Assembly (NCBI GenBank): GCA_003136935.1
Contig: PLEC01000130.1
Location: 41,050-99,387 of the forward strand
Source: Gammaproteobacteria bacterium
GTDB lineage: Bacteria > Pseudomonadota > Gammaproteobacteria > Steroidobacterales > Steroidobacteraceae
DNA: 58,338 nucleotides
Direction: 5' to 3'
Shown here: in pieces, positions 10,481 through 48,700 of the stretch
Layout of the letters: each line of letters starts with the position of its first letter
Numbering within the stretch: position 1 is the first letter of the stretch
Made by a program: the position numbers and the translations under genes
The notes under the pieces: generated by a model
Seen by the model: the letters and a program-made list of their open reading frames with translations, nothing else
Told to the model about the DNA's origin: nothing
The model's database searches: none

Positions 10481-10606
10481 GTTGTTATCTGTCGCCGCGC
10501 GGCCGATTTAGCCGCGGAGTATAGCCGCTCCGCTCCCGGCTTCGTAGATCGAGCCGGCGCGTGTTGGACGGCTTTTGGGGCCGCGCGTATCATCGCCGGC
10601 CCCAAC

Positions 10607-10683
10607 GCGCCCGTAGCTCAGCTGGATAGAGTACTGCCCTCCGAAGGCAGGGGTCACTGGTTCGAATCCAGTCGGGCGCGCCA
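10607..10683 (+). tRNA. tRNA-Arg (anticodon CCG)
   Basis: Cloverleaf folded by hand. Acceptor GCGCCCG/CGGGCGC. D-arm GCTC…GAGT. Anticodon stem CTGCC/GGCAG with loop CTCCGAA. T-arm ACTGG-TTCGAAT-CCAGT. Encoded CCA end. Confidence 0.9.
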
Positions 10684-10687
10684 ATCC

Positions 10688-24244: not shown

Positions 24245-24798
24245 CGCGCGGCCCGCTGCACGAAGCTGACGTAGCCGGCGAGGAACTGCTTCAGCTGTTC
24301 TTCGATCGTGGCATCTTTCAGCGCACCGGCTTCATCGAACACGCCACCGGCGCGCGCCACCAGCAGGCGCCCGCCGAACCAGGCATGCGTGCCGAGCGTG
24401 CGCAGCACCGGCAGCCACGCGACCTGGCTCAATGTCGTGCCGAAGGCCCCCGGGGATGCGCCGATGAGGGCGAATGGCCTGCCCGCGAACACGCGCCGCG
24501 CATCCGCGGGTGGCCGAGACAGCCAGTCGATGGCGTTCTTGAATACCCCCGGAATGCCGTTGTTGTATTCAGGGGTGACCAGCAGCACCCCGTCCGCCGC
24601 GACGATCGCCTCCTTGAGCTGCGATACCGTGGCGGGAATGCCCTGCGCCTCGACGTCACCGTCATAGAGCGGAATGCCGCGGATGCTGCCGACCTCGAGT
24701 GTTGTGTCCGGCGGCATGAGTTTCGTCGCGGCACGCAGCAGCGCGGTGTTGTACGAGGCGCGGCGCAGGCTGCCGGAAATCCCGAGGATCTTTGTCAT
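24232..24798 (-). CDS. NAD(P)H-dependent FMN reductase family protein
   Basis: 188 aa. ILGISGSLRRASYN flavodoxin-like P-loop and VTPEYNNGIPGVFKNAIDWLS motif. Confidence 0.85.
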   Translation of the reverse strand: MTKILGISGSLRRASYNTALLRAATKLMPPDTTLEVGSIRGIPLYDGDVEAQGIPATVSQLKEAIVAADGVLLVTPEYNNGIPGVFKNAIDWLSRPPADARRVFAGRPFALIGASPGAFGTTLSQVAWLPVLRTLGTHAWFGGRLLVARAGGVFDEAGALKDATIEEQLKQFLAGYVSFVQRAARQAP

Positions 24799-24853
24799 GC
24801 AGTGACCTTAGGCTGGCGCGGCGCTGCCTGCAACGCCACGCACCGGACTGACA

Positions 24854-26038
24854 TCAGCGTTTGAGCTTCGCCGCCACCCGCCGGTAGGCCTCGCGGAAAG
24901 GGATGCCCTCGGTGACCACCAGGCGGTTGGCTTCTTCCGCGGCGTGAATCGCGGGATCCAGTCGCACCGCCGCGGGCCGCAACTGCAGTGAGCCGATGGC
25001 GGCCGGGAGAATGGCGAGCGTCTCGAGCGCCAGATCAATGCCGCGGAACAGCGGGAACTTCAAGAGCTGCAGGTCGCGGTGGTAGCCGGAAGGCAGCTTC
25101 GCGCAGATGGCGAGCGCTTCCAGGAGGCAGGCCTGCGCGGTGGCCGAACGGCCGCGCACCAGCTCGAACAGATCCGGGTTGCGCTTCTGCGGCATGATGG
25201 ACGAGCCGGTGGTGAACGCTTCGCCCACTGCCAGGAAACCAAACTCATAAGTTCCGTACAGCACCACGTCAGCGGCGAAGCGGCCGAGGTCCTGTATGAG
25301 CAGCGTGATTTCAAACAACAGCTGGGCCTCGGCCTTGCCGCGCGAGAGTTGCACCGCGGTGACCGGCTCCTGCACGCCCGCGAAGCCCAGCTTCTCGCGT
25401 GTCGTCTCGCGATCGATGGGCAGCCCTGGCGTGCCATAGCCGGCTGCCGAACCTAAGGGGTTCTTGTCCACACGGCGCAGCACCTGTTCGAGGCCCTGGG
25501 CATCGTCGCGGATTTCCGCGGCAAAGCCGCCGGCCCACAGGGCCACCGAACTGGGCATGGCCTGCTGCAGGTGGGTGTAGCCGGGCAGCACCGTGCTGGC
25601 CTCACGCGCACCGAGCGTATCGAGCGCGGTCGCCACGGCGAGCGCGCCACGGCTCAGACTTGCGATCACCTCGCGCAGGTACAGGCGCACGGCGGCGAGC
25701 ACCTGGTCGTTGCGTGAGCGGCCAAGATGTATGCGCGCACCAGCCGCGCCGAGGCGCGCGGTCAGGCGCCGCTCGAGCGCTGTCTGGCCGTCCTCATCCG
25801 CAAGCTCAATGCGCCACTCGCCACGCGCGTGCTCGGCGGCAAGTGCCGTGAGCCCCTCGCGGATGGCGGCAAGATCCACCGGCGACAACAGTTGCCGCGC
25901 GTGCAGCATTTCCGCGTGCGCGATGGAGGCGCGCACGTCATGGGCGACCAGGCGCTCATCGAGCGCGTAGTCCTCGCCGGCGGTGTACTCGAGCACACGC
26001 GCATCCAGCGGCACGCCCTTGTCCCACAGTCGTGTCAT
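24854..26038 (-). CDS. argH: Argininosuccinate lyase (short form)
   Basis: Fumarase/lyase family. HLGRSRNDQ and GSSIMPQKRNPD signatures. 394 aa, which is shorter than the typical ArgH. Last gene of the arg operon, and its start overlaps the argB stop. Confidence 0.85.
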   Translation of the reverse strand: MTRLWDKGVPLDARVLEYTAGEDYALDERLVAHDVRASIAHAEMLHARQLLSPVDLAAIREGLTALAAEHARGEWRIELADEDGQTALERRLTARLGAAGARIHLGRSRNDQVLAAVRLYLREVIASLSRGALAVATALDTLGAREASTVLPGYTHLQQAMPSSVALWAGGFAAEIRDDAQGLEQVLRRVDKNPLGSAAGYGTPGLPIDRETTREKLGFAGVQEPVTAVQLSRGKAEAQLLFEITLLIQDLGRFAADVVLYGTYEFGFLAVGEAFTTGSSIMPQKRNPDLFELVRGRSATAQACLLEALAICAKLPSGYHRDLQLLKFPLFRGIDLALETLAILPAAIGSLQLRPAAVRLDPAIHAAEEANRLVVTEGIPFREAYRRVAAKLKR

Positions 26039-26970
26039 GGCGGGGCCTGCTGCTCCGCCGGCGTAAGCGCGTTGATATCCGCAACGATGAGCGTACCGGT
26101 GCCTTCGTTGGTGAACACCTCACCGAGGATCCCTTCCGGGGCCTGGTACGAAACCACGTGCACACGCCGGACACCGCCGCGGATCGCATCCTCAATCGCC
26201 TTGGCCTTCGGCAGCATGCCGTCGGCGATGTGGCCCTCGTCGCGCAGCTTCTTCAGCCCGCGCAGGTCGGTGTAGGAAACCAGTGAGCCGGGATCGGCAA
26301 GGTCGCCGAGGATGCCGGGGGCCCCGGTGCACAGGATGAGCTTCTCCGCCGCGAGCGCTGCACCGATGGCCGCGGCGACGGTGTCGGCGTTGATGTTGAG
26401 CAGCGTCCCGGACTCATCCGCCGACAGCGGGCTCACCACCGGCATGAGGCCGTTGTCGAGCAGCTTTTTCAGGACCGTGGGGTCCACCGCGTCGATGTCG
26501 CCGACGAAGCCGTAATCGATCATCTCACCATTGGAGGCGAGTCTTACGGGCGGGCGCTTGTGGGCCCGCACCAGGCCGGCGTCCACGCCGCTGATGCCCA
26601 CCGCGTCAATGTTGAGGTCGCGGCAGATGCCGAGCACGCGCGTGTTGATGAGCCCATTCAACACCATCGCCGTGGCATCGATGGACTTCTGATCGGTGAC
26701 CCGCCGGCCCTCCACCATGCGGACGGGCACGCCGAGCGCGGCGGAGAGCTCGGTAAGCTGCGGCCCGCCGCCGTGCACCAGCACCACGCGCACACCGAAG
26801 AAATGCAGGATCGCGATCTGCTCGACCAGCACCCGCGTGGCGTTCTCGTCGGCGAACACCCCGCCGCCGACCTTCACGACGAAAGTCTTGCCCTTGAACA
26901 TGCGAATGTAGGGCGCGGCGCTTTTCAGCGCGTGGATGGCGAGGGCCTGGTCGCTGCGATGCATGATCAT
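26035..26970 (-). CDS. argB: Acetylglutamate kinase
   Basis: 311 aa starting at MIMHRSDQ. AAK family motifs (KTFVVKVGGG, VLVHGGGPQ, NINADTVAAAIG). The ORF-track extension to 27456 runs antisense-frame through argF'. Confidence 0.9.
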   Translation of the reverse strand: MIMHRSDQALAIHALKSAAPYIRMFKGKTFVVKVGGGVFADENATRVLVEQIAILHFFGVRVVLVHGGGPQLTELSAALGVPVRMVEGRRVTDQKSIDATAMVLNGLINTRVLGICRDLNIDAVGISGVDAGLVRAHKRPPVRLASNGEMIDYGFVGDIDAVDPTVLKKLLDNGLMPVVSPLSADESGTLLNINADTVAAAIGAALAAEKLILCTGAPGILGDLADPGSLVSYTDLRGLKKLRDEGHIADGMLPKAKAIEDAIRGGVRRVHVVSYQAPEGILGEVFTNEGTGTLIVADINALTPAEQQAPP

Positions 26971-27971
26971 GGGGGAGTCCTGAGTAATTGATGGAGTACG
27001 GCCATCTGCGTCGGCAGGCGGTTGCGGGCCTCGAGCTGCACGGCGCTGCGCGGCCCGTCGAGCACCGCATCGCTGATGGCGGTGTTGCGCCGTACCGGCA
27101 GGCAATGCATGACGCGGCAGCCGGCTGCGGCGGCGGCGAACCAGTCCTCGCGCACGCACCAGTCGGTCAGTGGCGCGCGCAGCCGCGCATCCGCGGCGTT
27201 GTCGCCGTAGCAGGCGGTCGCGCCCCACTCCTTTACATAGAGAACGTCCGCGCCCTTCAGGGCTGAAGCGCGCTCGCTCGTCTCGCGGATCGAGCCGCCG
27301 GCGGCGGCCGCGGCCTGGCGCGCGCGCTCCATGATGGCGGGCGGCAGTGCGAAGCCCTCCGGGCGCAGCACGATCACCTCCATGCCGCGCAGCGCCGCCA
27401 TGTGCAGCGCGGCGGCCGGCACCGCCAGTGGCAGGGCGCGTGGGTGCCACGCCCACGAGAGCACGAAGCGAGCGGTGCGCGGTACCGCGAGATCATCGAG
27501 CGTCTTCCAGTCCGCGAGTGCCTGGCACGGATGATTGGCGGCGGATTCGAGATTGATGAGTGGCTTGTCGATGAGTGCCGCCATCGTGCCGAAAGTGGTT
27601 TCGGCGAGATCGTGAGCGAGATCACGCCCCGCGGCGAACGCGCGGATTCCAAGTGCGTCGCAATAGGACGCCAGCACCGGCAGGGCCTCGCGCACGTGCT
27701 CCGCCGCCGCGCCATCCATGACCACCCCGTCGCGCGTCTCGAGCTGCCAGCTGCCCTGGCCCGGGTTGATGACGAAGGAGCCACCGCCCAGGCGCAGCAT
27801 CGCCGTCTGGCACGACGCGAGCGTGCGCAGCGACGGGTTGAAGAACACCAGTCCCAGGATCTTGCCGGCGAGTGCCTGCGGCTCCGGGTGCGACTCCAGG
27901 CGCCGCGCGAGCTCGAGCAGCGCCAGCACTTCATCGCGCGGCAGCTGCGCCAGATCGACAAAGCGCTTCAC
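26967..27971 (-). CDS. argF': N-acetylornithine (or N-succinylornithine) carbamoyltransferase, ArgF' type
   Basis: 334 aa from a GTG inside a GTGA overlap with the argD stop. It has FFNPSLRT (not the OTCase STRTR), plus NHPCQALAD and HCLPVRRN motifs, resembling the Xanthomonas/Bacteroides acyl-ornithine transcarbamylases. Confidence 0.75.
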   Translation of the reverse strand: MKRFVDLAQLPRDEVLALLELARRLESHPEPQALAGKILGLVFFNPSLRTLASCQTAMLRLGGGSFVINPGQGSWQLETRDGVVMDGAAAEHVREALPVLASYCDALGIRAFAAGRDLAHDLAETTFGTMAALIDKPLINLESAANHPCQALADWKTLDDLAVPRTARFVLSWAWHPRALPLAVPAAALHMAALRGMEVIVLRPEGFALPPAIMERARQAAAAAGGSIRETSERASALKGADVLYVKEWGATACYGDNAADARLRAPLTDWCVREDWFAAAAAGCRVMHCLPVRRNTAISDAVLDGPRSAVQLEARNRLPTQMAVLHQLLRTPP

Positions 27972-29107
27972 GCCGCCAGATCCCTGAGCGCCCCGCTCAG
28001 CATATCCACGTGTTCCTCCTCGAGAATGAAGGGCGGCAGCAGCCGCAGGATGTTGGGATCGCTGGCGGTGCCGGCGAGGATGCCGCACTCCAGAAGATCC
28101 GCCTGCAGTGCTTTTGCCGGCCGCGTGGTGCGCAGCCCGATGAGTAGCCCCGCCCCCTGGTGTCCGGTCACCGGACCCACGACGCAGGTCTTGCGGATGT
28201 AGTCGCCGATGCGTTGCACGCGCTCGAGCAGTTGTTCGCCCTCGATCGCATTCAGCACCGCCTCGATCGCGGCGCACGCCAGCGGGCCGCCGCCGAAGGT
28301 GGTGCCGAGGGAGTCCGCCTTGAGCGACGCCGACACCACCGCCGACATCATCAGCGCCGCGCACGGGAAGCCGTTGCCGAGCGCCTTGGCGGTGGTGAGC
28401 ATGTCGGGGCGCACGCCGTAGAGGTTGGCCGCGAAGGGCTCGCCGGTGCGGCCGACGCCGCACTGCACTTCGTCGAATATCAGCAGCGCACCCACTTCAT
28501 CACACCGCTTGCGCAGCGCCGCGAGAAACGCCGCGCCCAGATCCACCGCCCCGGCAAGCCCCTGCACCGGCTCGACGATCAGCGCCGCGGTCCGCGCGGT
28601 GATCTGCGAGGTGATGGCGCTCGTGTCGCCGCGCGGGATAAAGCTCACGTCAAAGGGCGTACGCGGAAATCCGTAGCCCTTGGCCTGGGCGCCCCAGGTC
28701 ACGGCCCCGGCCGCGGCGGTGCGTCCATGGAATGCGCCCTCGATGGCGGCGACGTGCGGCCGGCCGGTCATGCGCAGCGCAACCTTGAGCGCGTTCTCGT
28801 TGGCCTCGGCGCCGCTGTTGACGAAGAACACGCTCGCAAATGGTAATCGCGAGAAGCGCACCAGGTGCGCGGCCGCGCGCGCACGCACCTGCATCGCGAC
28901 CGCGTTGCTCTGAAACTGACAGGCCTCGGCCTGGCGGGCCAGCGCCGCCGTCCACCCGGGATGCGCGTAGCCGAGTCCCGCGACCGCGTGCCCGCCGTAC
29001 AGATCGAGCACGCGCTCGCCGCGGCTGTTGGTGAGCCACACGCCCTGCGCCGACACGACTTCCAGCGGGTACTGCGAGAACACCGGTGCGAGGAAGCTGT
29101 GGTCCAT
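27968..29107 (-). CDS. argD: Acetylornithine aminotransferase (class III PLP aminotransferase)
   Basis: 379 aa. FFVNSGAEANE and LIFDEVQCGVGRTG motifs. PLP-lysine context TTAKALGNGFP. Confidence 0.85.
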   Translation of the reverse strand: MDHSFLAPVFSQYPLEVVSAQGVWLTNSRGERVLDLYGGHAVAGLGYAHPGWTAALARQAEACQFQSNAVAMQVRARAAAHLVRFSRLPFASVFFVNSGAEANENALKVALRMTGRPHVAAIEGAFHGRTAAAGAVTWGAQAKGYGFPRTPFDVSFIPRGDTSAITSQITARTAALIVEPVQGLAGAVDLGAAFLAALRKRCDEVGALLIFDEVQCGVGRTGEPFAANLYGVRPDMLTTAKALGNGFPCAALMMSAVVSASLKADSLGTTFGGGPLACAAIEAVLNAIEGEQLLERVQRIGDYIRKTCVVGPVTGHQGAGLLIGLRTTRPAKALQADLLECGILAGTASDPNILRLLPPFILEEEHVDMLSGALRDLAA

Positions 29108-29117
29108 GGGCGCTCCT

Positions 29118-30179
29118 TCAGGTCCAGCCCGGCGCGGGCGCCGTGAGGCCGGTGGTTTCCGGCAGTGCGAACAGGCGGTTCATCCACTGCACGGCGCCGC
29201 CGGCCGCGCCCTTGGTGAGATTGTCGATGGCACACAGGACCGCCACGGTGCCGTCCTTTGCGGCCGCCGACAGGTGCGCGTAGTTGCTGGCCACCACGTC
29301 CTTGATCCGTGGCGCCTCTGCCGTGACGCGCACGAACGGAGCATGTGCATAAAAGTCCCTCAAGGCCGCCAGCACGTCCGCCGTATCCACAGCGCGGCTC
29401 GCCGCCGCCTGCACCGCGACGTGGATACCCCGCGCAAAGGGACCGGAGTGGGGCACGAAGGCGAACTGCGCCGCAACGCCGGATGCGGCGCGCGCGCATG
29501 CCGCGACCTCCGGCACATGACGGTGGCTGAGCGCGCCGTAGCTGTAGAGATCACTGTGGCGCAGCGGATGATGCGTGCCCTCCACCGGCTTGCGCCCGGA
29601 GCCGGTACTGCCCGTGACCCCGCTGACGAACAGGGGTTGCCTCACGAGTCCCGCCGCCAGCAGCGGCACGCTCGCGAGCAGGATCGCGGTGGCAAAACAT
29701 CCCGGGTGCGCGATGTGCGGGGTGGTCGCCTCGTTGAGATGCTCCGGCAGCGCGCAGGTGAATTCGCGCATCCGCCCGGGCGCACCATGCGCGTGCGCAT
29801 AAACCTGCGCATATGTTTCCGGCGAGGCGTAGCGGAAATCCGCTGAAATATCGACCACCCGCGGCCGTGTGCCGGCGCGCTGCGCGCCACTGAGCAGAGT
29901 GTCGATCAGGGAAGCGGAGACACCATGTGGGGCTGCGGAGAATACCGCCGACTCGGGCGCTGCGGCGATGAGCGGTGCAACCTCGGCCTGGGACCTGAAG
30001 CGCTCCCCGGGGTATGAGGATGCGAGGTGCGGGAAGGCGCGGGCGATGCTCTCGCCCGGCTGGCTGTCCGACATAACCGCCGCAAGCCTGAAGTTCGGGT
30101 GCGCGGCGATGAGGCGCAGCAGTTCGCCGGCGACGTAGCCGGTGCCGCCGAGGACCACTGTTGGAATCCGCGGGCTCAT
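29118..30179 (-). CDS. argC: N-acetyl-gamma-glutamyl-phosphate reductase
   Basis: 353 aa. GGTGYVAGELLRL NAD-binding motif and active-site HPGCFATA. Confidence 0.9.
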   Translation of the reverse strand: MSPRIPTVVLGGTGYVAGELLRLIAAHPNFRLAAVMSDSQPGESIARAFPHLASSYPGERFRSQAEVAPLIAAAPESAVFSAAPHGVSASLIDTLLSGAQRAGTRPRVVDISADFRYASPETYAQVYAHAHGAPGRMREFTCALPEHLNEATTPHIAHPGCFATAILLASVPLLAAGLVRQPLFVSGVTGSTGSGRKPVEGTHHPLRHSDLYSYGALSHRHVPEVAACARAASGVAAQFAFVPHSGPFARGIHVAVQAAASRAVDTADVLAALRDFYAHAPFVRVTAEAPRIKDVVASNYAHLSAAAKDGTVAVLCAIDNLTKGAAGGAVQWMNRLFALPETTGLTAPAPGWT

Positions 30180-31252
30180 TGCACGGCCGCGGCTTTCAGC
30201 CCCAGCGCTTCAATCACGCAATCTCCGAGCGCCGCGCCGTTGCTCAGGGCGTTGAACGCCGGCACGTTCATCTGCGTGGTGATGATCTCCACGCCCACCT
30301 GGTTGTCGGTCGCCGGCCCGGTCACGACGCACGGCTCAATCGCGAAGCGCTCGCGCAGCAGCTTCACGCCGCCCCAGGCGGCCACCGGATCGTTGGCGGA
30401 CAGGATCACGCCACTTAAGGCGGCGCGGATATCGGGACATTCGAGGATGGCATCGACGCCGTAGGTGCCGAGAATGCCGTCGCCGAGTTCGAACACCACC
30501 ACGTCGGGCTTGCCCGCCGCGAGTGCGCTCAACATGGTGCGCGTGAGCGCCGGACCATTGACGCGCGTGGTCGTGACGACGCCCAGATCGGTGAATATGG
30601 CGCAGCGGCGTGCGCCCGCGTCCTCCATGGCGAGGACGTCGCGGCGCAGGGAAACGCCGGTCGCCTTGAAGGCATCGACGGTGAGTCCGCGGTGGCGCAT
30701 GCGGGCGATGACCGCACAGGCGGCCGCCGTCTTGCCGGCTTCCATGCAGGTGCCGGCGAGCGCCACCACCGGCACGCCACGGGTGTCGAGAGCCGCGTTG
30801 AGGTCGAGCGCTTTCGCACCCACGCGCGCGGGTACGCCGATGCGCTCCCCGAGGTAAGGGAAATTCAGCGCCACGCCCAGCACGCGGCAATCAAAAGGCC
30901 GGCCCTTGTCGGGATTGATGGAATCGCAGATGCCGAGCACGCCGCCGATGTTGAGCATCTGGATGATGTCGCCCGGCTGAATGGTCGCCGGCACGTGGCC
31001 GGAGTAACCAAAGAGCGCGCGGCGGTGACCCAGGGCACCCGCGACCACGTCGCCCTTGCCCACCTTGGCCATGCGGCCGCTGGTGAGCTCGAGGGTGTTG
31101 TAGGTCGACTTGTTGGTGAGCACTTCGACCACCACCACGACGCCTTCTTCCGCGGGAATATCCGTGGCGATGCGTACCTCGTGCGACAGGCCGCAGGCCT
31201 GGGTCACGGAGGCGAGCTTGTCGACGACAACGCTGCGCATGTTGCCGACCAT
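30176..31252 (-). CDS. Uncharacterised two-domain protein with P-loop-like motif, embedded in the arg operon
   Basis: 358 aa starting at MVGNMRSV. Beta-rich N-terminal domain (GVVVVVEVLTNKSTYNTLELTSGRMAKVGKGDVV…). C-terminal alpha/beta domain with VVALAGTCMEAGKTAA (GxxxxGKT-like). It starts 2 nt after the argG stop, and its stop overlaps the argC start by 4 nt. Not an M20 deacetylase, GNAT or ArgJ by eye. Confidence 0.7.
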   Translation of the reverse strand: MVGNMRSVVVDKLASVTQACGLSHEVRIATDIPAEEGVVVVVEVLTNKSTYNTLELTSGRMAKVGKGDVVAGALGHRRALFGYSGHVPATIQPGDIIQMLNIGGVLGICDSINPDKGRPFDCRVLGVALNFPYLGERIGVPARVGAKALDLNAALDTRGVPVVALAGTCMEAGKTAAACAVIARMRHRGLTVDAFKATGVSLRRDVLAMEDAGARRCAIFTDLGVVTTTRVNGPALTRTMLSALAAGKPDVVVFELGDGILGTYGVDAILECPDIRAALSGVILSANDPVAAWGGVKLLRERFAIEPCVVTGPATDNQVGVEIITTQMNVPAFNALSNGAALGDCVIEALGLKAAAVQ

Positions 31253-31254
31253 CG

Positions 31255-32496
31255 TTATGGTTGCTTCGCGCCCGCGCGCTCGCCGGCGCGGGTGTAGAAG
31301 ACGCCCGGCAGCGAGACGATGCGCGAGAACCCCAGCGAGTCGCTCGCCGACCACTCGCCCGCCGCCTCGCCGTACACGCCCCTGGAGGCGGCCATGAGCG
31401 AGTAGGGTGAATCCACGCCCTCGATGAACAGGCCCCCGGTCCGCAGCAGCAGGTGCACGTCGCCTGTGACGCGCGCCTGGGACGACACGAACAGCGCCTC
31501 GATGTCCCGGCACACCGGATCCAGGAGTTGCCCCTCGTGCACGAGATCCCCGTAGGTCTGGGCCACCAGTTCCTTGACGCGCTGCTGGCGGCCGGTGAGC
31601 ACCAGCTTCTCGAGCTCGCGGTGCGCGGTCAGCAGCACATCCGCCGCCGGTGCCTCGAAGGCCACGCGGCCCTTGGTGCCGATGATGGTGTCGCCGAGAT
31701 GAATGCCGCGGCCGATACCGAAGGGTGCGGCGAGCGTCTCGAGCGCCTCGATGATGGCCACGGGCGAAAGCGCCTTGCCGTCGAGTGCGACCGGGCGTCC
31801 CTGGTGGAAGGCCAGCACGTGACGCTGCGCAGCGCGCGGCTGCGCGAAGGCGTCGCGCGTCAGGAGCCAGGCGTCCTCGGGAATGCTGCCGGTGGAAGTG
31901 AGTGTTTCCTTGCCGCCGATGGTCACGCCCCACAGGCCGCGGTTGACCGAGTATTTCGCGCCCGTGGCGGGTACCGGCAGGCCGCGCTGCTGCAGATAGT
32001 CGAGTTCGTCCTGGCGTTTGAAAGCCTGATCCCGCACCGGCGCCAGCACCTTCAGGTCAGGCGCCAGCGTGCGCAACGCCACCTCGAAGCGCACCTGGTC
32101 GTTGCCGGCCGCGGTACAGCCGTGCGCGATCATGTCCGACCCGAGCCGGTGTGCCATGCGGGCGATGGTCTGCGCCTGCATGACGCGCTCGGCGCCGACA
32201 CACAGCGGGTAGAGTCCCCCGCGCCGCACGTTCCCCATGATGAGAAACCGCAGCACCTGCTCGAAGTAGTCGGCGCGCGCATCGACCTGGTGATGCGCGA
32301 TGGCGCCGAGCGCGTGCGCGCGTTGCGCGAGCGCATCCGCCGCGGCCGCATCGATTCCGCCGGTGTCGACCGTGACGGTGATCACCGGGCGCTGCTGCGT
32401 CTCCTTGATCCACGGCACCAGAAACGAAGTGTCGAGACCGCCGGAGTAGGCAAGAACGATGGGCGTGGCGCCGGTGCGCGGCAGCGTGCTGGACAT
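31255..32496 (-). CDS. argG: Argininosuccinate synthase
   Basis: 413 aa starting at MSSTLPRT. AYSGGLDTS ATP-binding motif and downstream ArgG motifs (GCTAAGNDQVRFE). Confidence 0.9.
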   Translation of the reverse strand: MSSTLPRTGATPIVLAYSGGLDTSFLVPWIKETQQRPVITVTVDTGGIDAAAADALAQRAHALGAIAHHQVDARADYFEQVLRFLIMGNVRRGGLYPLCVGAERVMQAQTIARMAHRLGSDMIAHGCTAAGNDQVRFEVALRTLAPDLKVLAPVRDQAFKRQDELDYLQQRGLPVPATGAKYSVNRGLWGVTIGGKETLTSTGSIPEDAWLLTRDAFAQPRAAQRHVLAFHQGRPVALDGKALSPVAIIEALETLAAPFGIGRGIHLGDTIIGTKGRVAFEAPAADVLLTAHRELEKLVLTGRQQRVKELVAQTYGDLVHEGQLLDPVCRDIEALFVSSQARVTGDVHLLLRTGGLFIEGVDSPYSLMAASRGVYGEAAGEWSASDSLGFSRIVSLPGVFYTRAGERAGAKQP

Positions 32497-32501
32497 GATG
32501 G

Positions 32502-32954
32502 TCAGACCCGGAACAGCGTGCGCAGGCGGCTGACGAGCTCTTCCTGGGCGCGCGCGTTGGCGGTGGCAATGAATATGGTGTCGTCGCCGGAGATGGTGCC
32601 GGCGACTTCCGGCCATTCGGCCTTGTCGATGGCGACGGCGACGCTTTGCGCGGCGCCAATCGTGGTGCGCAGCACGGCGATCGAGGGTCCGGCACGATGC
32701 AGCGCCCGTACGAACTGCGCCAGAGTGCCGAAGTCGCCATTGGCGCGCGTCACCTCGTCGGCGGGCAGCACGTAGCGGCCGCGCGCCTTGAGCACTCCCA
32801 GGTCGCGCAGGTCGCGGCTGACGGAGGACTGGTTGACGTCGTGACCTTCCTTCTTAAGGAGGCGCACGAGGTCCTGCTGCTTGCCGACCCGTCCCTCGCG
32901 CAGGATGCGCACGATGGCGCCGCGGCGCTCGAACTGTTGCGCGTCATTCAGCAT
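32502..32954 (-). CDS. argR: Arginine repressor
   Basis: 150 aa. N-terminal winged-helix (QQDLVRLLKKEGHDVNQSSVSRDLRDLG). C-terminal oligomerisation/arginine-binding domain (GTISGDDTIFIA). Confidence 0.9.
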   Translation of the reverse strand: MLNDAQQFERRGAIVRILREGRVGKQQDLVRLLKKEGHDVNQSSVSRDLRDLGVLKARGRYVLPADEVTRANGDFGTLAQFVRALHRAGPSIAVLRTTIGAAQSVAVAIDKAEWPEVAGTISGDDTIFIATANARAQEELVSRLRTLFRV

Positions 32955-32969
32955 GGCTTGTGGGCTTTA

Positions 32970-33004
32970 GGCATAAACATGCACATATTGTGCATTTAAA
33001 TGCG
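32970..33004. promoter_or_regulatory. Tandem ARG boxes (ArgR operator) upstream of argR
   Basis: GGCATAAACATGCA (32970-32983) and TGCATTTAAATGCG (32991-33004) both fit TGnAT-W4-ATnCA. Their starts are 21 bp apart (two helical turns). The perfect palindrome ATGCACA-TAT-TGTGCAT lies between them. They sit 16-50 nt upstream of the argR start. Confidence 0.65.
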
Positions 33005-33024
33005 CAACAGTCAAGGGCGGGTAA

Positions 33025-36000
33025 CTACCTCTCGATCGAGTAGACGAGGTCGGCGCCGCGCGCCTGGCCGGCCTCGATCCTCACCGCCCAGTGATCTCCC
33101 AGGCTGTAGCGCAGCTTGATGACGTTGAGCTGCTCGGTGAGGCTGATGCCGTAGCTCACGTACAGCCTGGGGGACAGGTAGCGGCCGAGCACCAGCGAGG
33201 TCTCGTTGGTGATGTCGGATTCGAGGCTCACGTCCTCGATACCCACGCGCGAACCGTACTGCTGCCCCAGCATCGCGGCGGCCTGCCCGGCGGCGTAGTT
33301 GCCGGTGCCGACGCCAGCGCCGACGGTGGTACCGGGGGCGCGGCTTTGCGCCGACTCGAGTGAGCCGCCGGCGAGAATCAGCGACTGGATCTGCGACTGC
33401 GGCAGTGGCGGATCGGAGAAGAACGACAGGTGCGGGGCGAGCAGCGTGCCGCGGACGTCAACTCCCGCGGTCACATCCGGGAATTCCTTTTGGGCGCGCA
33501 GGTTGATTCCCGGGTTGTCGACCGGTCCGCCGGTGAAGATCAGCCGGCCGTACTTGATGTCGAGCTTGCGGCCGTAGGCGCTGTACTTGCCGTCCGCCAC
33601 GGACAACTCGCCGGTGCCTCGCGTGGTGGGGTCGTACCCGCTGCGGATGGTAATGGCGCCAACAATACGCGCCGTCAGCCCCGAGGCATCGACGTTGACG
33701 CGATCGCCGAGGCTGAGCGTGATGGTGCTCACCACCTCGAAGCGCTTGGTGGGATCGTCCACCTCGCTTCCCACGATCACCTCGTCGGGCGAGGTCCGCA
33801 CCGCATTGGTGATGTCGCGGGGGGCGATTTTTGCGAACGGCACCGTGACCTGGCCGGTGACTTCGATTTTGCGCCCGGTGATATTGAAGTCGAGATTTGG
33901 AGAGGCATCGATCTGCGCTTCCGGAACATCGGCGACCCGCAGGTTGGTGCCCTGCAGGTGGAACTTCCCGTAAGGCAGCAGGTTTTTCCACTCGAGGTGT
34001 CCGCTGGTCGTGACGGTGCCGGTGCCGGTGCCGGCGCCGACGTGTGCGCTGCCGTCGAAATCGAGCCCGGCATTGCTCAGGCGTGCGTCAAAGGCAACCT
34101 GGTGCAGGCTGAGGTTGACCTGGTAGTTGTTGATCTCGCCGTCGGTCAGCTTCAGCTCCCCGGTGAGCAACGGTGTGCCAAGCGTGCCGGCCGCGGTCAC
34201 GTTTGCATCCAGGTGTCCCGCGGCGCGGTCCACGTCCGGAAAATACAGCGAAATGAGGCCGAGTTCGGCGGTGTGCGCGTGCAGCTCACCCCTGAGCGGC
34301 ATGTCCTGCCACCGCGCTGTGGTGCGCCGCGCCTCGAACGCGCCCGCGAGTGTCCCGACCTGGCTCTCGATGAGTGCGACCTCGGCGGTGATCGTGGCCG
34401 GCGTGGCGGCTACTGTTACGGTGCCTGAACCGATGTTCGTATGCTCGAGCTTGCGGCTGGCGAGCTTGTGGATGAGTTCGGCGTTGGCGAGGTCCGCGCG
34501 CACGGTTCCGGTCACGGGGATCTGCGCGCCACCGGCGACGTGGGCCAGGGCGTTGACCATGCCCCGGTACTCGACCGCGGGCGTCATGCCGGCGGTGAGG
34601 GTGTTGAGCGGCAGCTGGTTGGCCATGATGGTGCTCGACCAGTGCGCCGGGGTCCAGTCGCCGTCGGCGCAGACGCTGCCGGGCGCGCCCGTGAGACACA
34701 GCCGTTCCACACTCACATGGTCCAGGGAAGCGGTGAGTTCCACCGGACGTTCGAGCGTGAGGTGTAGCGACTCGTTGCCCTGGATGGCGAGTGCGTCGAG
34801 CTGACCATGAAAAAGTCCGTGGGCATAGGAACCGGTCGCGGCGGCGTGCGCCGCAAGTCCGGTGGCGGTCGCCGCGAGCTGCACGTGGTAGTTGACGGGG
34901 AGACCGCTGAGTGTGAATGCCACGGTGTCGGCGGTGCGGCCGCCGAATGTCAGCTTGCGCAGCCGCGCGTCGATCTTCGATTCCTGCAGCGTCGCGGCCG
35001 GATCGAAGTTGATGTCGGCGTCGAAGCCTTCGATCTTGATTCCCTGATAGTCGATACCCCCGCCGTGTGCGGTGGCCACGATCACCGGGTCCGCGAGCGT
35101 TCCGCGCATGCTGCCCGAGGACTTGAGTACCCCGCGGCTGCCCGGGGCGAGCAGGCTCAGGTCCTGGGTGGACACCGCGAAGCGCAGATCCACCTGGTCG
35201 TTGACGCGTCCGTCGAGCGCCAGGCTGGCGCTCCCCAGGCCCACGCGCACATTATCGAAGCCCCAGGTGACACCCGCATGCGTCACCGTGCCAGCGCCGC
35301 TCGCCGCAACGCCGCGCACCTTGCCGGTGAGGCTGCTGAAGCTCGTGGTCAGCGTGCCTGAGGGTTCGAAGCCGCGGCCGCTGGCGGTGAATGTGAAGTT
35401 GACGCTGCCAGGCAGATCCGGTCGCACCCGGCCAGGGTTGATGCCGGTCGCGCGTCCAGTCACCGACCAGGTTTCCGCGGGCGACCACCGCAGCTCGCCG
35501 TTGACGCTCGCATGGCCGTCGAACAGATCCACTTCAGCAGGCTCAAAGGCGAAGCTGTCCTTGCCGAGCGTCCCCGTAAGTTCCACGGGCATCTCCGCCA
35601 GGTCCGCGGCCCGTCCGCGGCCGGTCAGGTGGACCTTGTATGGAAGAATTCCCTGCAGGGTGAAGTCGCCCGCCGCACTGCGTATTGCCACGTCACGGCC
35701 GACCAGTGGCCAGCGGAAGTTGTCCCAGCTGCCGGTGAGATTCAGCCGCGGCCCGTTGTCGACGATGCCGAAAGTGCCGGCAGCAATGGCGTGCGCGCCG
35801 GAGGCGTTGTGACGGACTTCCATGCGGGTGGCGGTCAGCACCTTATCGGCGTAATGACCGGCAAACTGCGCGGCGAACTCGCCCGCGCGCAGCCCGGCTG
35901 GATTCACCGGACCGTGCCCTTCGAAGCCGTTGGCGTCGCCCGACACGGCGAGGTGTCCGGTGATGTTGCCCAGCAGCGGGGCGGCAATTCCCCAGGGGGT

Positions 36001-43764: not shown

Positions 43765-44697
43765 TCAGTAGATGGCGATTTCGCGCCGCCCGCCCGAGTC
43801 GCGGGCCCCGCGAAACATGCCTTCGCTGCTGAAATCCATCACCACCTGCCCGTCCTGGCCCACGGCGATGAGGCCGCCGTCGCCGCCCATACCGGCCAGA
43901 ATCTCGTGCAGCATTTCGCGCACCGCCTGCTGCAGCGTCAAGCCGCGGTACTGCACGGCGGCGCAGACGTGGTGGGCCGCCACGGCGCGAATGAAGTACT
44001 CGCCGTGCCCGGTGGCGGACACCGCGCATACACCGTTCTTTGCATAAGTGCCGGCGCCGATGATGGGTGAATCCCCGACCCGCCCGGGGCGCTTGTTGGT
44101 CATGCCGCCGGTGGAGGTGGCGGCGGCGAGGTTGCCGGCACCATCGAGGGCGACCGCACCCACCGTACCTTTGGAGGTGGGCAGAAGCTCCGACATGCGC
44201 TCGCCGCGCTGCTCGGACTCGAGCTGCGCCAACCGCTCGGCGGTGCGGAAGTAGTGGTTGGGAACGAGCGTGAACTGCTCTTCCAGCGCGAATTCCTCGG
44301 CGCCCGCGCCGACCAGCAGCACGTGGCGCGACTTCTCCATCACGCGCCGCGCGAGGTCTATGGGATTTTTCACGTGACGCACGGAGGCGACCGCGCCGGC
44401 GCGCAGCTGCCGACCGTCCATGATGGCGGCATCGAGTTCGGCCGCGCCGTCGCGTGTGAGCGCGGCTCCATGGCCGGCGTTGAACAAGGGATCGTCTTCG
44501 AGGACGCGCACCGCGGCCGCCACGGCATCCAGACTGCTGTCCCCGCCCGCCAGCACCGCATAGCCGCGGTCGAGCGCCGCCGCCAGGCCGGCGCGATAGA
44601 GCTGCTCACGCTCGGCGGACAGCGCGGCGCGCGGCATCGCCCCGGCGCCGCCGTGAATGGCGATGGCGTACATGGGTCTGGTTCCTGCGCTGCTCAT
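43765..44697 (-). CDS. Isoaspartyl peptidase/L-asparaginase (Ntn hydrolase), cytoplasmic paralogue
   Basis: 310 aa. No signal peptide. Autocleavage/nucleophile context GTVGAVALD and STGGMTNKRPGRVGDSPIIGAG. Confidence 0.85.
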   Translation of the reverse strand: MSSAGTRPMYAIAIHGGAGAMPRAALSAEREQLYRAGLAAALDRGYAVLAGGDSSLDAVAAAVRVLEDDPLFNAGHGAALTRDGAAELDAAIMDGRQLRAGAVASVRHVKNPIDLARRVMEKSRHVLLVGAGAEEFALEEQFTLVPNHYFRTAERLAQLESEQRGERMSELLPTSKGTVGAVALDGAGNLAAATSTGGMTNKRPGRVGDSPIIGAGTYAKNGVCAVSATGHGEYFIRAVAAHHVCAAVQYRGLTLQQAVREMLHEILAGMGGDGGLIAVGQDGQVVMDFSSEGMFRGARDSGGRREIAIY

Positions 44698-45701
44698 GGC
44701 GCGTCGCGGAATAGGGCGACTTCCTGCCGGCCGTGGATATCGCGCGAGGCGCGGAACATACCGGAGGTGTTGAAATCCATGACGATGTCGCCGTGTGGAT
44801 CGATCGCGATCACCCCACCCGTGTCGGGCGCCGCGTGCGCCAGCTTCTCATCGATGACCTCGTGCACGGCCTGCGCAAGCGTCAGGTGCCGGTAGTGCAC
44901 CAGCGCGCAGATGTCATAGGCCACCAGCTCGCGCATGAAGTACTCGCCCCAGCCGGTGCCCGAGACGGCGCACGACTCGTTGTTGGCGTAGGTGCCGGCA
45001 CCGATGATGGGCGAGTCCCCCACGCGCCCGACGTGCTTGTTGGTGAGTCCGCCGGTGGAGGTGGCGGCGGCGAGGTTGCCGGCGCGATCGAGTGCCACGG
45101 CGCCCACCGTGCCCTTGGGTAGCGCGTTCGGCGGCGCCGCGGCGCGTTCGCGTGCCGCGCGCTGCACCTCCTGCAGCTCGTGCTCACGCTGCGGGGTGCG
45201 GAAGTATTCCGGTGCCACCAGCACCACGCCCTGTTCCAGTGCGAACTCCTCGGCGCCTTCGGCTACCAGCAGCACGTGCGGGCTCTTATCCATCACCAGG
45301 CGCGCAAGATCGATCGGGTTCTTGACGTGGCGCACGGCGGCCACCGCCCCCGCACGCGGTCCGTTGCCATCCATGATGGCGGCATCGAGTTCCGCATCGC
45401 CGTGCGCGTCGAGCACCGCGCCGCGGCCAGCATTGAATTGCGGATCATCCTCCATGGTGCGCACCGCGGCCGCCACGGCATCCAGGCTGGTGCCGCCGCG
45501 CTCGAGGATCGCGTAGCCGGCGTTGAGCGCCGCCGCAAGTCCCGCGCGGTAGGAGGCTTCACGTTCGGGGGTCATTTTCGCGCGGTCCATGGTGCCGGCG
45601 CCGCCGTGGATGGCGATGGCCAGCGGGTGCGGCTCGGCGGCCAGGGCCGGCATGGCGAGCGATGACCAACACAAAAGCGCGATGATTTTCAGGCGCGACA
45701 T
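44694..45701 (-). CDS. Isoaspartyl peptidase/L-asparaginase (Ntn hydrolase), secreted paralogue
   Basis: Start at MSRLKIIALLCWSSLAMPALAAEP (signal peptide). GTVGAVALD and STGGLTNKHVGRVGDSPIIGAG motifs. Its stop overlaps the start of the downstream paralogue by 4 nt. Confidence 0.85.
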   Translation of the reverse strand: MSRLKIIALLCWSSLAMPALAAEPHPLAIAIHGGAGTMDRAKMTPEREASYRAGLAAALNAGYAILERGGTSLDAVAAAVRTMEDDPQFNAGRGAVLDAHGDAELDAAIMDGNGPRAGAVAAVRHVKNPIDLARLVMDKSPHVLLVAEGAEEFALEQGVVLVAPEYFRTPQREHELQEVQRAARERAAAPPNALPKGTVGAVALDRAGNLAAATSTGGLTNKHVGRVGDSPIIGAGTYANNESCAVSGTGWGEYFMRELVAYDICALVHYRHLTLAQAVHEVIDEKLAHAAPDTGGVIAIDPHGDIVMDFNTSGMFRASRDIHGRQEVALFRDAP

Positions 45702-45798
45702 ACTTTCCCCCCAGCGGCTATGATCGAAGCCAACCCGCACGGGCGCTCAAAAAGCGCCTCGCGGGGCTCTCCAGACAAACCGTGCGGTAAATACTAAG

Positions 45799-48700
45799 GT
45801 GAAACCCGCCAGCTCGCAGCGGATCCGCAGCGTCCTCGTCGCCAACCGCGGCGAAATCTCCATTCGTGTCATGCGGGCGGCGGCCGAGCTGGGCCTGCGC
45901 ACGGTGGCGATCTATTCGCAGGAGGACCGTTTCTCGCTGCACCGGACCAAGGCCGACGAAGCCTACCTCGTGGGCGCCGGCCGTGCGCCCGTCGAGGCCT
46001 ACCTCGACATCGCGGACATCGTGCGCATCGCGCGCGAGGCGCAGGTGGACGCAATCCATCCGGGCTACGGCTTCCTGGCGGAAAACCCCGATTTCGCGCG
46101 CGCCTGCGCCGCGGCCGGCATCCTGTTCGTGGGACCGGAACCCGAGACCATGGGTCTGCTCGGCAACAAGGTCGCGGCGCGCAATCTCGCAGTCAGGGCT
46201 GGCGTTGCGGTCATGCCCGCAACCCCGCCGCTGCCGCGCGAATTTGCGGCCTGTGCCCGGATGGCGGGCGGCATCGGCTACCCGCTGATGCTGAAGGCGA
46301 GCTGGGGCGGGGGCGGGCGCGGCATGCGCGTGATCGAGAGCGAGGCACAGCTCGCGGAGCTGCTGCCGGTAGCGCGCCGCGAAGCACAGGCCGCCTTCGG
46401 CAACGACGAGGTGTACCTGGAGAAGCTGGTGCGCCGCGCGCGCCACGTCGAAGTACAGATTCTCGGCGACCACCACGGCACGCTCGTGCATCTGTACGAA
46501 CGTGACTGCACGGTGCAGCGGCGCAACCAGAAGGTGGTGGAGCGCGCGCCGGCGGTCTTTCTCACGGACGCACAGCGTCAGGACCTGTGCGCGGCGGCGC
46601 TGGCGGTCGGCCGCGCCGCAAACTACCGCAATGCCGGCACGGTGGAGTTTCTGCAGGACGCCGACAGCGGCCATTGCTATTTCATCGAGGTGAACCCGCG
46701 CATCCAGGTCGAGCACACGGTCACCGAAGCGGTCACCGGCATCGACCTGGTGAAGGCGCAGATCCGCATCGCCCAGGGTGAGCGCATCGGCACCGCGGAC
46801 AGCGGCGTGCCGGCGCAGGGCGACATCCGCATCAGCGCCCACGCCCTGCAGTGCCGCATCACCAGCGAGGATCCGGAAAACAACTTCATCCCCGACTACG
46901 GCAAGATCGCCGCCTACAGGAGTCCGGCAGGCTTCGGCATCCGCCTCGACGCCGGCACCGCCTACACCGGCGCCATAATCACGCGCTCCTACGATTCGTT
47001 GCTCGTCAAGGTGACCGCCTGGGCGCCGACGCCGCAGGAGACGATCGCGCGCATGCACCGGGCGCTGTGGGAGTTCCGCATCCGCGGCGTGGTCACCAAC
47101 CTGCGTTTTCTCGATCAGCTCATCACCCATCCGCGCTTTGCGGCCGGCGACTACACCACCCGCTTCATCGACGACACGCCGGAGCTTTTCCGCTGGCCGC
47201 GCAAACGCGATCGCGCCACGCGCATCCTGCAGTTTCTTGGCAACACCATCGTCAACGGCAACTCTGAAACCCGCGGCCGCGCGCGCCCGGCGCATTTCAC
47301 GGCCGCGAAACTGCCGCCGGGTACTTTGCCCGCCGCCGCGCCCGGGACCAGACAGAAACTGGATGAGCTGGGACCCGAGCGCTTCGCAAAATGGATGCTG
47401 GCGCAAGAGCGCGTGCTCATCACCGACACCGCGATGCGCGATGCGCACCAGTCGCTGCTGGCGACGCGGGTGCGCACCATCGACATGGCGGCCATTGCCC
47501 CGTACTACGCGAGCCTCCTGCCGCAACTGTTCTCGGTCGAGTGCTGGGGTGGGGCGACTTTCGATGTGGCCATGCGGTTTCTGCGCGAGGATCCGTGGCA
47601 GCGCCTGGCGCTGCTGCGCGAGCGGATGCCGAACCTGCTGCTGCAGATGCTGCTGCGCTCGGCCAACGCCGTCGGCTACGCCAACTACCCGGACAACGTG
47701 GTGCGTTTCTTCGTGACGCGCGCCGCGGCGGGCGGCGTCGACGTGTTCCGCATTTTCGACTCGCTCAACTGGGTCGAGAACATGCGCGTCGCCATCGACG
47801 CGGTGCTGGCCACCGGCAAGCTGTGCGAGGCGTCGCTGTGTTACACGGGAAACTTAAGTAACCCGCACGAGAAAAAATACACGCTGGACTATTACCTGAA
47901 GCTGGCGCGCGAGTTGAAATCCGCGGGCACACACGTGCTGGGCGTCAAGGACATGGGCGGGCTGTGCCGGCCGCGCGCCGCCTACACGCTGGTGAAGGCC
48001 CTTAAAGAGGAGATCGGCCTGCCGGTGCACTTCCACACCCACGACACCAGCGGCATCGCGGGCGCGAGCGTGCTGGCCGCGGTGGATGCGGGTGCCGATG
48101 CAATCGATGGCGCGATCGATGCGCTGAGCGGGCTCACCTCCCAGCCTAATCTCGGTTCCATCGTCGAGGCTCTGCGTTACGGGCCACGGGATCCGGGCAT
48201 CGATCCGGACCAGCTGCGGAACATCTCTGCATACTGGGAGCAGGTGCGCCGGCACTACGCCGCATTCGAAAGCGACCTGCGCGCCGGGGCCTCCGAGGTG
48301 TACGTGCACGGGATGCCGGGCGGCCAGTACACGAATCTGCGCGGCCAGGCCCGCGCGCTTGGCATCGACGATGCACGCTGGCCCGAAGTGGCGCGCGCCT
48401 ACGCCGAGGTCAACGACATGTTCGGCGACATCATCAAGGTCACGCCTACCTCCAAAGTGGTCGGTGACCTGGCGCTTCTCATGGTCACCGCGGGGTTGAG
48501 CCGTCAGCAGGTGGAGGACCCCAACACCGAAGTCGCGTTTCCGGAGTCGGTGGTGCAGTTCTTTCGTGGCGAGCTCGGCCAGCCCCACGGCGGCTTCCCG
48601 GCGGCGCTGCAGAACAAGGTGCTCAAGGGCGCGCCGCCGCTCACCGTGCGCCCCGGGGCGGCGCTGCCGGCGGTGGACCTGGATGCCGAGCGCCAGCGGA

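Follow-up and report, generated by a model that had tools for sequence, protein, structure and literature searches.

The stretch of DNA considered here, hereafter the window, comprises 58,338 nucleotides (nt) of contig PLEC01000130.1 (positions 41,050 to 99,387; assembly GCA_003136935.1) and comes from a gammaproteobacterium of the family Steroidobacteraceae. Its minus strand carries, from 32954 to 24854, a single compact operon of eight open reading frames (ORFs) in the order argR-argG-X-argC-argD-argF'-argB-argH. Seven of them encode known proteins of arginine metabolism. The eighth, X, encodes a protein of 358 amino acids (aa), and the step that this protein may perform in arginine biosynthesis is the subject of this article.

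A previous sequence-only reading of the window had proposed this gene order, with junctions made of 4-nt overlaps or gaps of 2-10 nt. Both proposals hold. Every arg gene is identified by Pfam and NCBIfam (Table 1), and the successive ORFs are separated by 5 nt (argR/argG), 2 nt (argG/X, the start of X lying 2 nt past the argG stop) or 10 nt (argC/argD), or overlap by 4 nt. Such overlaps are found at X/argC, where the sequence ATGA places the stop codon of X within the start codon of argC, and at argD/argF', argF'/argB and argB/argH. The best NCBIfam matches of ArgD are acetylornithine/succinylornithine transaminases, and ArgB matches just the kinase portion of the NCBIfam ArgA models. ArgH spans positions 13-386 of the 455 positions of its model and lacks the C-terminal ASL_C2 domain. 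This short length also occurs in other Steroidobacteraceae loci; the ArgH proteins of X-bearing operons from other phyla (L094, L095) have 464-497 aa, with ASL_C2.

Within 24600-33200, the sole promoter-like site is located upstream of argR (33014-32987). It is sigma-70-like, with TTGACT and CACAAT separated by 16 nt. A perfect 15-nt palindrome, TGCACAATATGTGCA, overlaps this promoter at 32980-32994 and is a plausible candidate for an ArgR operator; if so, autoregulation of the whole operon would be implied.

Table 1. Features of the arginine operon and of protein X. Positions are those of the window.
Feature	Position	Strand	Basis
Candidate promoter and palindrome	32980-33014	-	Promoter scan; palindrome read from the sequence
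argR, arginine repressor, 150 aa	32502-32954	-	Pfam Arg_repressor and Arg_repressor_C; TIGR01529, E 2.5e-32
argG, argininosuccinate synthase, 413 aa	31255-32496	-	TIGR00032, 290 bits vs. 268-bit cutoff
X, 358 aa	30176-31252	-	Without Pfam or NCBIfam family assignment
X, N-terminal all-beta domain, residues ~1-135	30848-31252	-	Strands in the model; domain modelled alone, pLDDT 92.5
X, C-terminal SIMIBI-class P-loop domain (alpha/beta), residues ~155-358	30179-30790	-	Foldseek and family profile vs. PDB
X, Walker A motif GTCMEAGKT, residues 167-175	30728-30754	-	Translation; G173, K174 and T175 invariant in the family
argC, 353 aa	29118-30179	-	TIGR01850, 275 bits vs. 233.6-bit cutoff
argD, N-acylornithine aminotransferase, 379 aa	27968-29107	-	Pfam Aminotran_3, E 1.8e-83
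argF', N-acylornithine carbamoyltransferase, N-succinyl-type signature, 334 aa, GTG start	26967-27971	-	NF003384, 330 bits vs. 288-bit cutoff
argB, N-acylglutamate kinase, 311 aa, short form without GNAT domain	26035-26970	-	TIGR00761, 204 bits vs. 151-bit cutoff
argH, argininosuccinate lyase, 394 aa, short form	24854-26038	-	TIGR00838, 284.7 bits; Pfam Lyase_1 alone

Protein X shows no M20, GNAT or ArgJ domain in a Pfam scan and has no match in NCBIfam. Its sole Pfam match, to DUF1611_C, lies below threshold (E 0.009, 15.9 bits vs. a 25-bit cutoff) and covers 39 residues, between residues 160 and 199 of X and profile positions 12-50 of 201. When the sequence of X was compared with those of the PDB, the only matches were to Hsp60, at chance level, and the same search with P0370, a family member having a precomputed DUF1611 match, returned no DUF1611 structure. 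An AlphaFold2 model of X built from 45 diverse homologues reaches a predicted local distance difference test score (pLDDT) of 95.7 and a predicted template-modelling score (pTM) of 0.92. It contains two domains, an all-beta N-terminal domain and an alpha/beta P-loop domain in which the GTCMEAGKT motif is located. Thus, both the two-domain architecture that the sequence-only reading had proposed and its statement that X is devoid of M20, GNAT and ArgJ features are borne out.

The P-loop domain has several remote relatives. In a Foldseek search of X against the PDB, the top match is dethiobiotin synthetase (1dbs/1dts, E ~6e-6); below it come signal recognition particle (SRP) GTPases, HypB and CTP synthase, as well as a DUF1611 structure, 2obn, at rank 16 (E 5.8e-5). 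Every match is remote, at ~15% identity and with template-modelling (TM) scores of 0.5-0.6 on the target. When the family profile is compared with PDB sequences, BioD of Mycobacterium tuberculosis comes first (3fgn, E 5e-4), in an alignment that spans the Walker A motif, K196 of X, which faces the Lys of the BioD "CKP" (Lys37), and D205. Among the 45 family members, Pfam matches at E <=0.01 go to CbiA (17), MobB (16), DUF1611 (10) and AAA_26 (3), and those to CbiA and AAA_26 are sub-threshold throughout. Judging from these comparisons, the C-terminal domain is about equally far from dethiobiotin synthetase, CbiA/MobB and DUF1611. The likeness to DUF1611/DgcN put forward in the sequence-only reading is therefore real but weak, limited to the P-loop domain and no stronger than that to BioD, CbiA or MobB. 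As to the N-terminal domain, Foldseek finds no fold match in the PDB, DUF1611 structures included (best E 0.66, TM <0.3). X has no confident match to any characterized family, all matches being sub-threshold or remote.

Conserved residues were judged across homologues of 30-49% identity. In the N-terminal domain G37, R77, P88 and G104 are invariant and E55 is nearly so. In the P-loop domain the invariant set consists of G173, K174, T175, K196, G199, D205, G213, A214, G224, E255, G257, D288 and G312. Both K196 and the Walker A motif (G-x4-G-K-[ST]), which are features of dethiobiotin synthetases, are thus strictly kept. D205 and E255, the latter in the segment FELGDG, are acidic, and just D205 falls inside the BioD alignment; the two are plausible sequence equivalents of Asp54 and Glu115, the Mg ligands of Escherichia coli BioD. 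The family shows no invariant Cys, His or Ser nucleophile and no invariant metal-binding set. No nucleotide-base-binding motif is identifiable in X, and the Cys of GTCM is not conserved, hence there is no G3E-type metal-binding signature.

Homologues of X are numerous. An exhaustive search of cluster representatives yields 1,465 clusters (50% identity) at E <=1e-3, of which 869 remain at E <=1e-10; named members include Acidobacteriota (Blastocatellia, Thermoanaerobaculia) and Chloroflexota, all annotated as "hypothetical protein." Gene neighborhoods were compared at ~170 loci, ~90 of them distant (30-50% identity; Acidobacteriota, Chloroflexota and unassigned metagenome contigs). In the Steroidobacteraceae, X adjoins arg genes in 80 of 80 genome loci, so that the linkage seen in the window is kept in related genomes. 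The gene order of the window is found around X in 76 of these loci, as far as each contig reaches. The remaining four carry X-argC-argB (L068, L079, L080) or stop after X-argC (L072). L053, from a Steroidobacteraceae-type metagenome-assembled genome (MAG), is devoid of argD, argC (9065-10123) being directly followed by argF' (10131-11120). L070 (CAMCBU010000002.1), from a MAG labeled Klebsiella pneumoniae, has a Steroidobacteraceae-type operon with an X that is 79% identical, and the bin is probably mislabeled or contaminated.

Conservation of X exceeds that of its neighbors. At the 48 loci that carry all eight genes, X ranks first among the eight proteins, with a mean identity of 85.6% vs. 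72.5-82.3% for the seven known ones, and judging from these values it is under very strong purifying selection. In 80 more distant metagenome loci (~40% identity to X), argG and/or argC adjoin X wherever the flanking DNA suffices. Examples at decreasing identity to X are argR-X-argC-argD-argF'-argB (L086, 47%), argG-X-argC (L087, 40%), X-argC-argD-argB (L088, 34%) and argG-X-argF' (L089, 32%). Other arrangements come from Acidobacteriota (L093, argR-argG-X-argC-argD-(PLP enzyme)-argF'-argB), Chloroflexota (L094, argG-X-argF'-argH-carA-carB) and Thermoanaerobaculia (L095, argG-X-argC-argD-argF'-argB-M20-argH). The pyridoxal phosphate (PLP) enzyme of L093 (13552-14883, 443 aa) resembles methionine-gamma-lyase and cystathionine synthase.

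X was taken as an unknown protein in the sequence-only reading, and the same prediction of its function had in fact already been made. The GapMind 2026 preprint predicts an alternative N-succinylglutamate synthase in Steroidobacter denitrificans, ACG33_RS14135 (A0A127FCT3), in an organism that grows in minimal medium and has no ArgA homologue (bioRxiv 10.1101/2024.10.14.618325, section 11 and Appendix 2). According to the same work, homologues of ACG33_RS14135 are nearly always found in arg operons, some with argE candidates, and never share a genome with ArgA homologues; the neighboring ArgF' has a residue other than Glu at position 92; and a weak Foldseek match links the protein to DgcN (7XRJ, at a root-mean-square deviation of 5.6 Å; bioRxiv 10.1101/2024.10.14.618325). 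Our literature search found no further paper on X-type proteins. X of the window is very probably the orthologue of ACG33_RS14135. Indeed, both come from Steroidobacteraceae and are hypothetical proteins in an arginine cluster, both have a remote structural link to DUF1611, and both are accompanied by an ArgF' without Glu92. The reasoning of the sequence-only reading, including its DUF1611/DgcN lead, is thus an independent route to a published hypothesis. Beyond the preprint, the present analysis notes that X occurs fused with a kinase-like domain, an N-terminal domain without fold match, and a resemblance to dethiobiotin synthetase and CbiA that equals or exceeds the one to DgcN.

The fusion was found in four independent metagenome samples (L082-L085), as a continuous ORF of 673 aa (7860-9881 in L082) in which X, at its full length, is joined with an acetylglutamate-kinase-like domain. 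In the fused protein, the invariant residues of X are preserved. In the kinase-like domain, the K-x-G-G motif is degenerate (KIADE) and HGGG is retained; by analogy with ArgA, this domain may be regulatory. Classical ArgA consists of an amino-acid-kinase-like domain fused to a synthase (GNAT) domain. The fusion copies this layout, and so provides a Rosetta-stone argument for X as the synthase. Compared with classical N-acetylglutamate synthases (ArgA, the bifunctional ArgA/B of Xanthomonadales, ArgJ), X is predicted to catalyze the same step and its fused form recalls ArgA, but it has neither a GNAT nor an ArgJ domain and its fold is unrelated, which would make it a non-orthologous replacement. 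In L082, the divergent neighbor of the fusion ORF encodes an arginase (TIGR01229, 230 bits), and no other arg gene is nearby. Another apparent fusion, of X to ArgC (P0173, 687 aa; L081, 6309-13676), was dismissed. The same long-read contig also fuses argR to argG and argF' to argB, and its fused genes are almost certainly frameshift artefacts of long-read assembly, unusable as Rosetta-stone evidence.

The sequence-only reading had proposed X as a non-orthologous replacement of either the acylglutamate-forming enzyme or the terminal deacylase. The general idea of a replacement is supported by synteny in at least three phyla, by the kinase-like fusion and by purifying selection, and of its two versions the first is favored. 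In L095, where the M20 protein has its best NCBIfam matches in the ArgE/DapE deacylase family, the operon holds a deacylase and covers all steps but that of ArgA, which by elimination is left for X. X and an M20 gene likewise share one operon in L171. The minimal clusters X-argC-argB and X-argC-argD-argB correspond to the front half of the pathway and thus place X at the first step. A Pfam scan of 30 other genes of the window (of 37 predicted) revealed no GNAT, ArgJ or M20 protein, and ArgB has no GNAT domain, so that the operon offers no alternative ArgA. Finally, the P-loop fold of X resembles ATP-dependent amide-forming enzymes and DUF1611, which fits N-acylation rather than deacylation. 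To our knowledge, this fold has precedents for amide formation and none for amide hydrolysis, which counts against a deacylase.

The same observations bear on the idea that X is an N-succinylcitrulline desuccinylase acting in place of ArgE. Such a role would suit S. denitrificans, which the preprint describes as also lacking ArgE, and the lack of an M20 gene in the operon of the window and in the other scanned genes. It would also suit the place of X after argG, if, as the sequence-only reading has it, Xanthomonas clusters carry argE there. However, X is accompanied by an ArgE/DapE-family M20 gene in the operons of L095 and L171, several loci pair it with argC, argB and argD only, it occurs fused to an acetylglutamate-kinase-like domain, and its family lacks both an invariant nucleophile and an invariant metal-binding set; this role is very improbable. 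With ArgA and ArgE both reported absent in S. denitrificans, it would be parsimonious for one protein to close the two gaps, as an ArgJ-like recycling transacylase that takes succinyl from N-succinylcitrulline (or N-succinylornithine) and hands it on to glutamate. Here again, an M20 deacylase is still kept in several X-bearing operons, and residues of the Walker A and Walker B types are strictly conserved, which points to the use of a nucleotide or of coenzyme A (CoA). We know of no P-loop enzyme for a transfer of this kind, which also counts against the proposal, and we give it very little credit.

A non-catalytic role deserves consideration because HypB, SRP GTPases and MobB are among the Foldseek and Pfam matches. 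X could be an accessory nucleoside triphosphatase, i.e., a regulator, an assembly factor or a metallochaperone of the HypB/UreG/MobB kind, acting on an arginine enzyme. In that case, organisms that reportedly grow on minimal medium would be left with no enzyme for the ArgA step. Moreover, the GTCM Cys is not conserved and no G3E-type signature is present, while the fusion with the kinase domain and the anticorrelation with ArgA suit an enzyme better. An accessory role is thus very unlikely.

The identity of the acyl group can be approached through ArgF'. Three positions, numbered as in the Xanthomonas enzyme, distinguish acetyl-specific carbamoyltransferases, with Glu92, Asn185 and Lys302, from succinyl-specific ones, with A/S/P/V/Q, Pro and V/I/E, respectively (PMC4581275). 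The ArgF' of the window has A90, P181 and A298 at these positions, i.e., two exact succinyl-type residues out of three, the third at least not being Lys, and it retains the residues that are catalytic in the Xanthomonas enzyme, E144 and K252. Its best PDB match, 3l02, is the E92A mutant of the N-acetylornithine carbamoyltransferase of Xanthomonas campestris. In its citation by the preprint, this single change turns the Xanthomonas enzyme succinyl-specific (Shi et al., 2007, via bioRxiv 10.1101/2024.10.14.618325). None of the 111 ArgF' proteins encoded beside X homologues has Glu at position 92. The residue there is Ala in 67 Steroidobacteraceae proteins, Val in one and Ile in one, and at distant loci it is Thr in 34 and occasionally Val, Gln, Ala, Ser or Ile.

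With Ala, Pro and Ala in place of Glu92, Asn185 and Lys302, the route is probably succinylated rather than acetylated as the sequence-only reading had assumed. Should X make N-acetylglutamate instead, within a Xanthomonas-type acetylated route, the NCBIfam name of ArgF', N-acetylornithine carbamoyltransferase, would be accounted for, as would the Ala at position 302, where the succinyl signature calls for V/I/E, and the use of acetyl-CoA that the preprint cites for DgcN, the nearest characterized P-loop relative. This appears improbable, though less so than the alternatives above, given that Ala and Pro stand in place of Glu92 and Asn185, the residues defining acetyl specificity, that E92A alone is cited as sufficient for succinyl specificity, and that Glu92 is missing from the whole set of neighboring ArgF' proteins.

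For the donor of the acyl group, DgcN offers the closest precedent. In the preprint's account, DgcN is a D-glutamate N-acetyltransferase that depends on acetyl-CoA and acylates glutamate at its alpha-amino group (Yu et al., 2023, via bioRxiv 10.1101/2024.10.14.618325). Like DgcN (DUF1611, PF07755 and PF17396; PDB 7XRJ, related structure 2OBN), X carries a GT..(G)K motif in a C-terminal SIMIBI P-loop domain. Unlike DgcN, it has an all-beta N-terminal domain of a different kind and a Pfam score that is sub-threshold over 39 residues; its predicted substrate is L-glutamate, its donor probably succinyl, and its role biosynthetic rather than catabolic. Since the two proteins would share the acceptor glutamate and a fold class, and since DgcN uses acetyl-CoA, succinyl-CoA is by analogy the donor that we favor, with some reserve.

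Another donor chemistry is conceivable within the same first-step role. Acyl-phosphate-type chemistry is known from dethiobiotin synthetase, CobQ/CobB and CTP synthase, in which the P-loop domain phosphorylates a carboxylate and an amine then attacks. X might accordingly act as an ATP-dependent succinate-L-glutamate ligase that phosphorylates a carboxylate of succinate, the acyl-phosphate then being attacked by glutamate through its alpha-amino group, and that requires no CoA thioester. Like BioD and CobQ/CobB-type enzymes (PF13500 AAA_26, PF01656 CbiA), X conserves the Walker A motif, the Lys after strand 2 (K196) and acidic residues that are plausible Mg ligands (D205, E255), as expected for Mg-ATP chemistry, and the chemistry of these enzymes, which joins a carboxylate to an amine as an amide, would by analogy suit its reaction. 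Dethiobiotin synthetases also give the top structural and profile matches (1dbs/1dts, E 6e-6; 3fgn, E 5e-4), and CbiA is the Pfam family matched by most members (17/45). On the other hand, X differs from these enzymes by its ~15% identity, TM scores of 0.5-0.6, additional N-terminal beta domain and sub-threshold Pfam scores; the similarity is weak throughout, X has no identified nucleotide-base-binding motif, and DgcN, the sole characterized glutamate N-acylating enzyme of the fold class, is cited in the preprint as using acetyl-CoA. A ligase is therefore a possible but rather unlikely form of the synthase.

Taken together, these lines of evidence make X a probable N-acyl-L-glutamate synthase. 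Its product would most likely be N-succinyl-L-glutamate, and it would stand in for the GNAT-type ArgA and for ArgJ; we put the probability of this assignment at about 0.65. Several points weigh against this assignment. The similarity of X to DgcN/DUF1611 is weak and no better than to CbiA, MobB or dethiobiotin synthetase. The DgcN structure 7XRJ is not among the best 50 Foldseek matches of X, and the N-terminal domain is unlike that of DUF1611 and matches nothing in the PDB. Two gaps exist, as a recognizable ArgE is also absent in Steroidobacteraceae, and X could in principle fill the other one (S. denitrificans; bioRxiv 10.1101/2024.10.14.618325). Thr, which prevails at position 92 of ArgF' in Acidobacteriota-type loci, is outside the experimentally tested set A/S/P/V. 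The preprint itself gives the function the status "predicted" (bioRxiv 10.1101/2024.10.14.618325), and the link of X to its S. denitrificans protein is drawn from the taxon, the operon position and the fact that X is the sole unassigned gene of the cluster. Finally, the family is not tied to arginine everywhere. An archaeal homologue, P0226 (~31% identity; L091, 8001-11714; L092, 1234-4947), lies outside any arg cluster, beside three paralogues of RimK-family alpha-L-glutamate ligases, which suggests a different glutamate-modifying role in the archaeal branch.

If X is an N-succinylglutamate synthase, the gene, its domains, synteny, fusion and conservation and the ArgF' signature, all directly observed, lead us to infer the following reactions. 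X would form N-succinylglutamate from glutamate, which ArgB would phosphorylate and ArgC reduce. Transamination by ArgD would give N-succinylornithine, and carbamoylation by the succinyl-type ArgF' would yield N-succinylcitrulline. Citrulline would then be freed by a desuccinylase encoded elsewhere, in the simplest guess an enzyme of the ArgE/DapE family, possibly DapE itself, and ArgG and ArgH would complete arginine. Catalysis by X would take place in the C-terminal P-loop domain, with G173-K174-T175, K196, D205, E255 and D288, and the N-terminal beta domain, with its invariant R77 and nearly invariant E55, probably holds the dicarboxylate substrate or substrates. ArgR would govern the whole operon through one upstream promoter/operator.

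Elsewhere in the window, two tandem Asparaginase_2 genes (43765-45740, minus strand; Ntn-hydrolases of the isoaspartyl peptidase/asparaginase type) are divergent from a pyruvate-carboxylase-like gene (45799-49257). At 54210-55934 (minus strand), a gene encodes a 574-aa protein in which a TIR domain at the N terminus precedes TPR repeats, possibly involved in defence or signaling.

The step catalyzed by N-acylglutamate synthase is the committed one in arginine biosynthesis, is usually under feedback regulation, and is among those most often "missing" in genome-based metabolic reconstructions. The functional prediction for X belongs to the GapMind preprint, and the assignment itself is not new. 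The present work adds an independent confirmation, drawn from a new genome and ~170 loci over three phyla, the joining of X with a kinase-like domain as a Rosetta-stone argument, the first rank of X in conservation among the proteins of its operon, and an N-terminal domain without known fold. It also shows that the structural evidence does not favor DgcN over ATP-dependent ligases, which makes the acyl donor a testable question. Were the donor chemistry that of a ligase, X might found a new enzyme class for the first step of the pathway, that of CoA-independent, ATP-dependent succinate-L-glutamate ligases combining a P-loop domain like that of dethiobiotin synthetase with a beta domain not seen before, and its kinase-fused and archaeal RimK-paired relatives might be further glutamate-N-acylating ligases; this reading as a whole is rather unlikely. 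If X is indeed the N-succinylglutamate synthase, the ArgA gap would be closed for a widespread set of soil and sediment bacteria, i.e., Steroidobacteraceae, many Acidobacteriota and some Chloroflexota. The succinylated arginine route would reach beyond Bacteroidota, and a P-loop domain joined to a novel beta domain would represent a new catalytic scaffold for amino-acid N-acylation.

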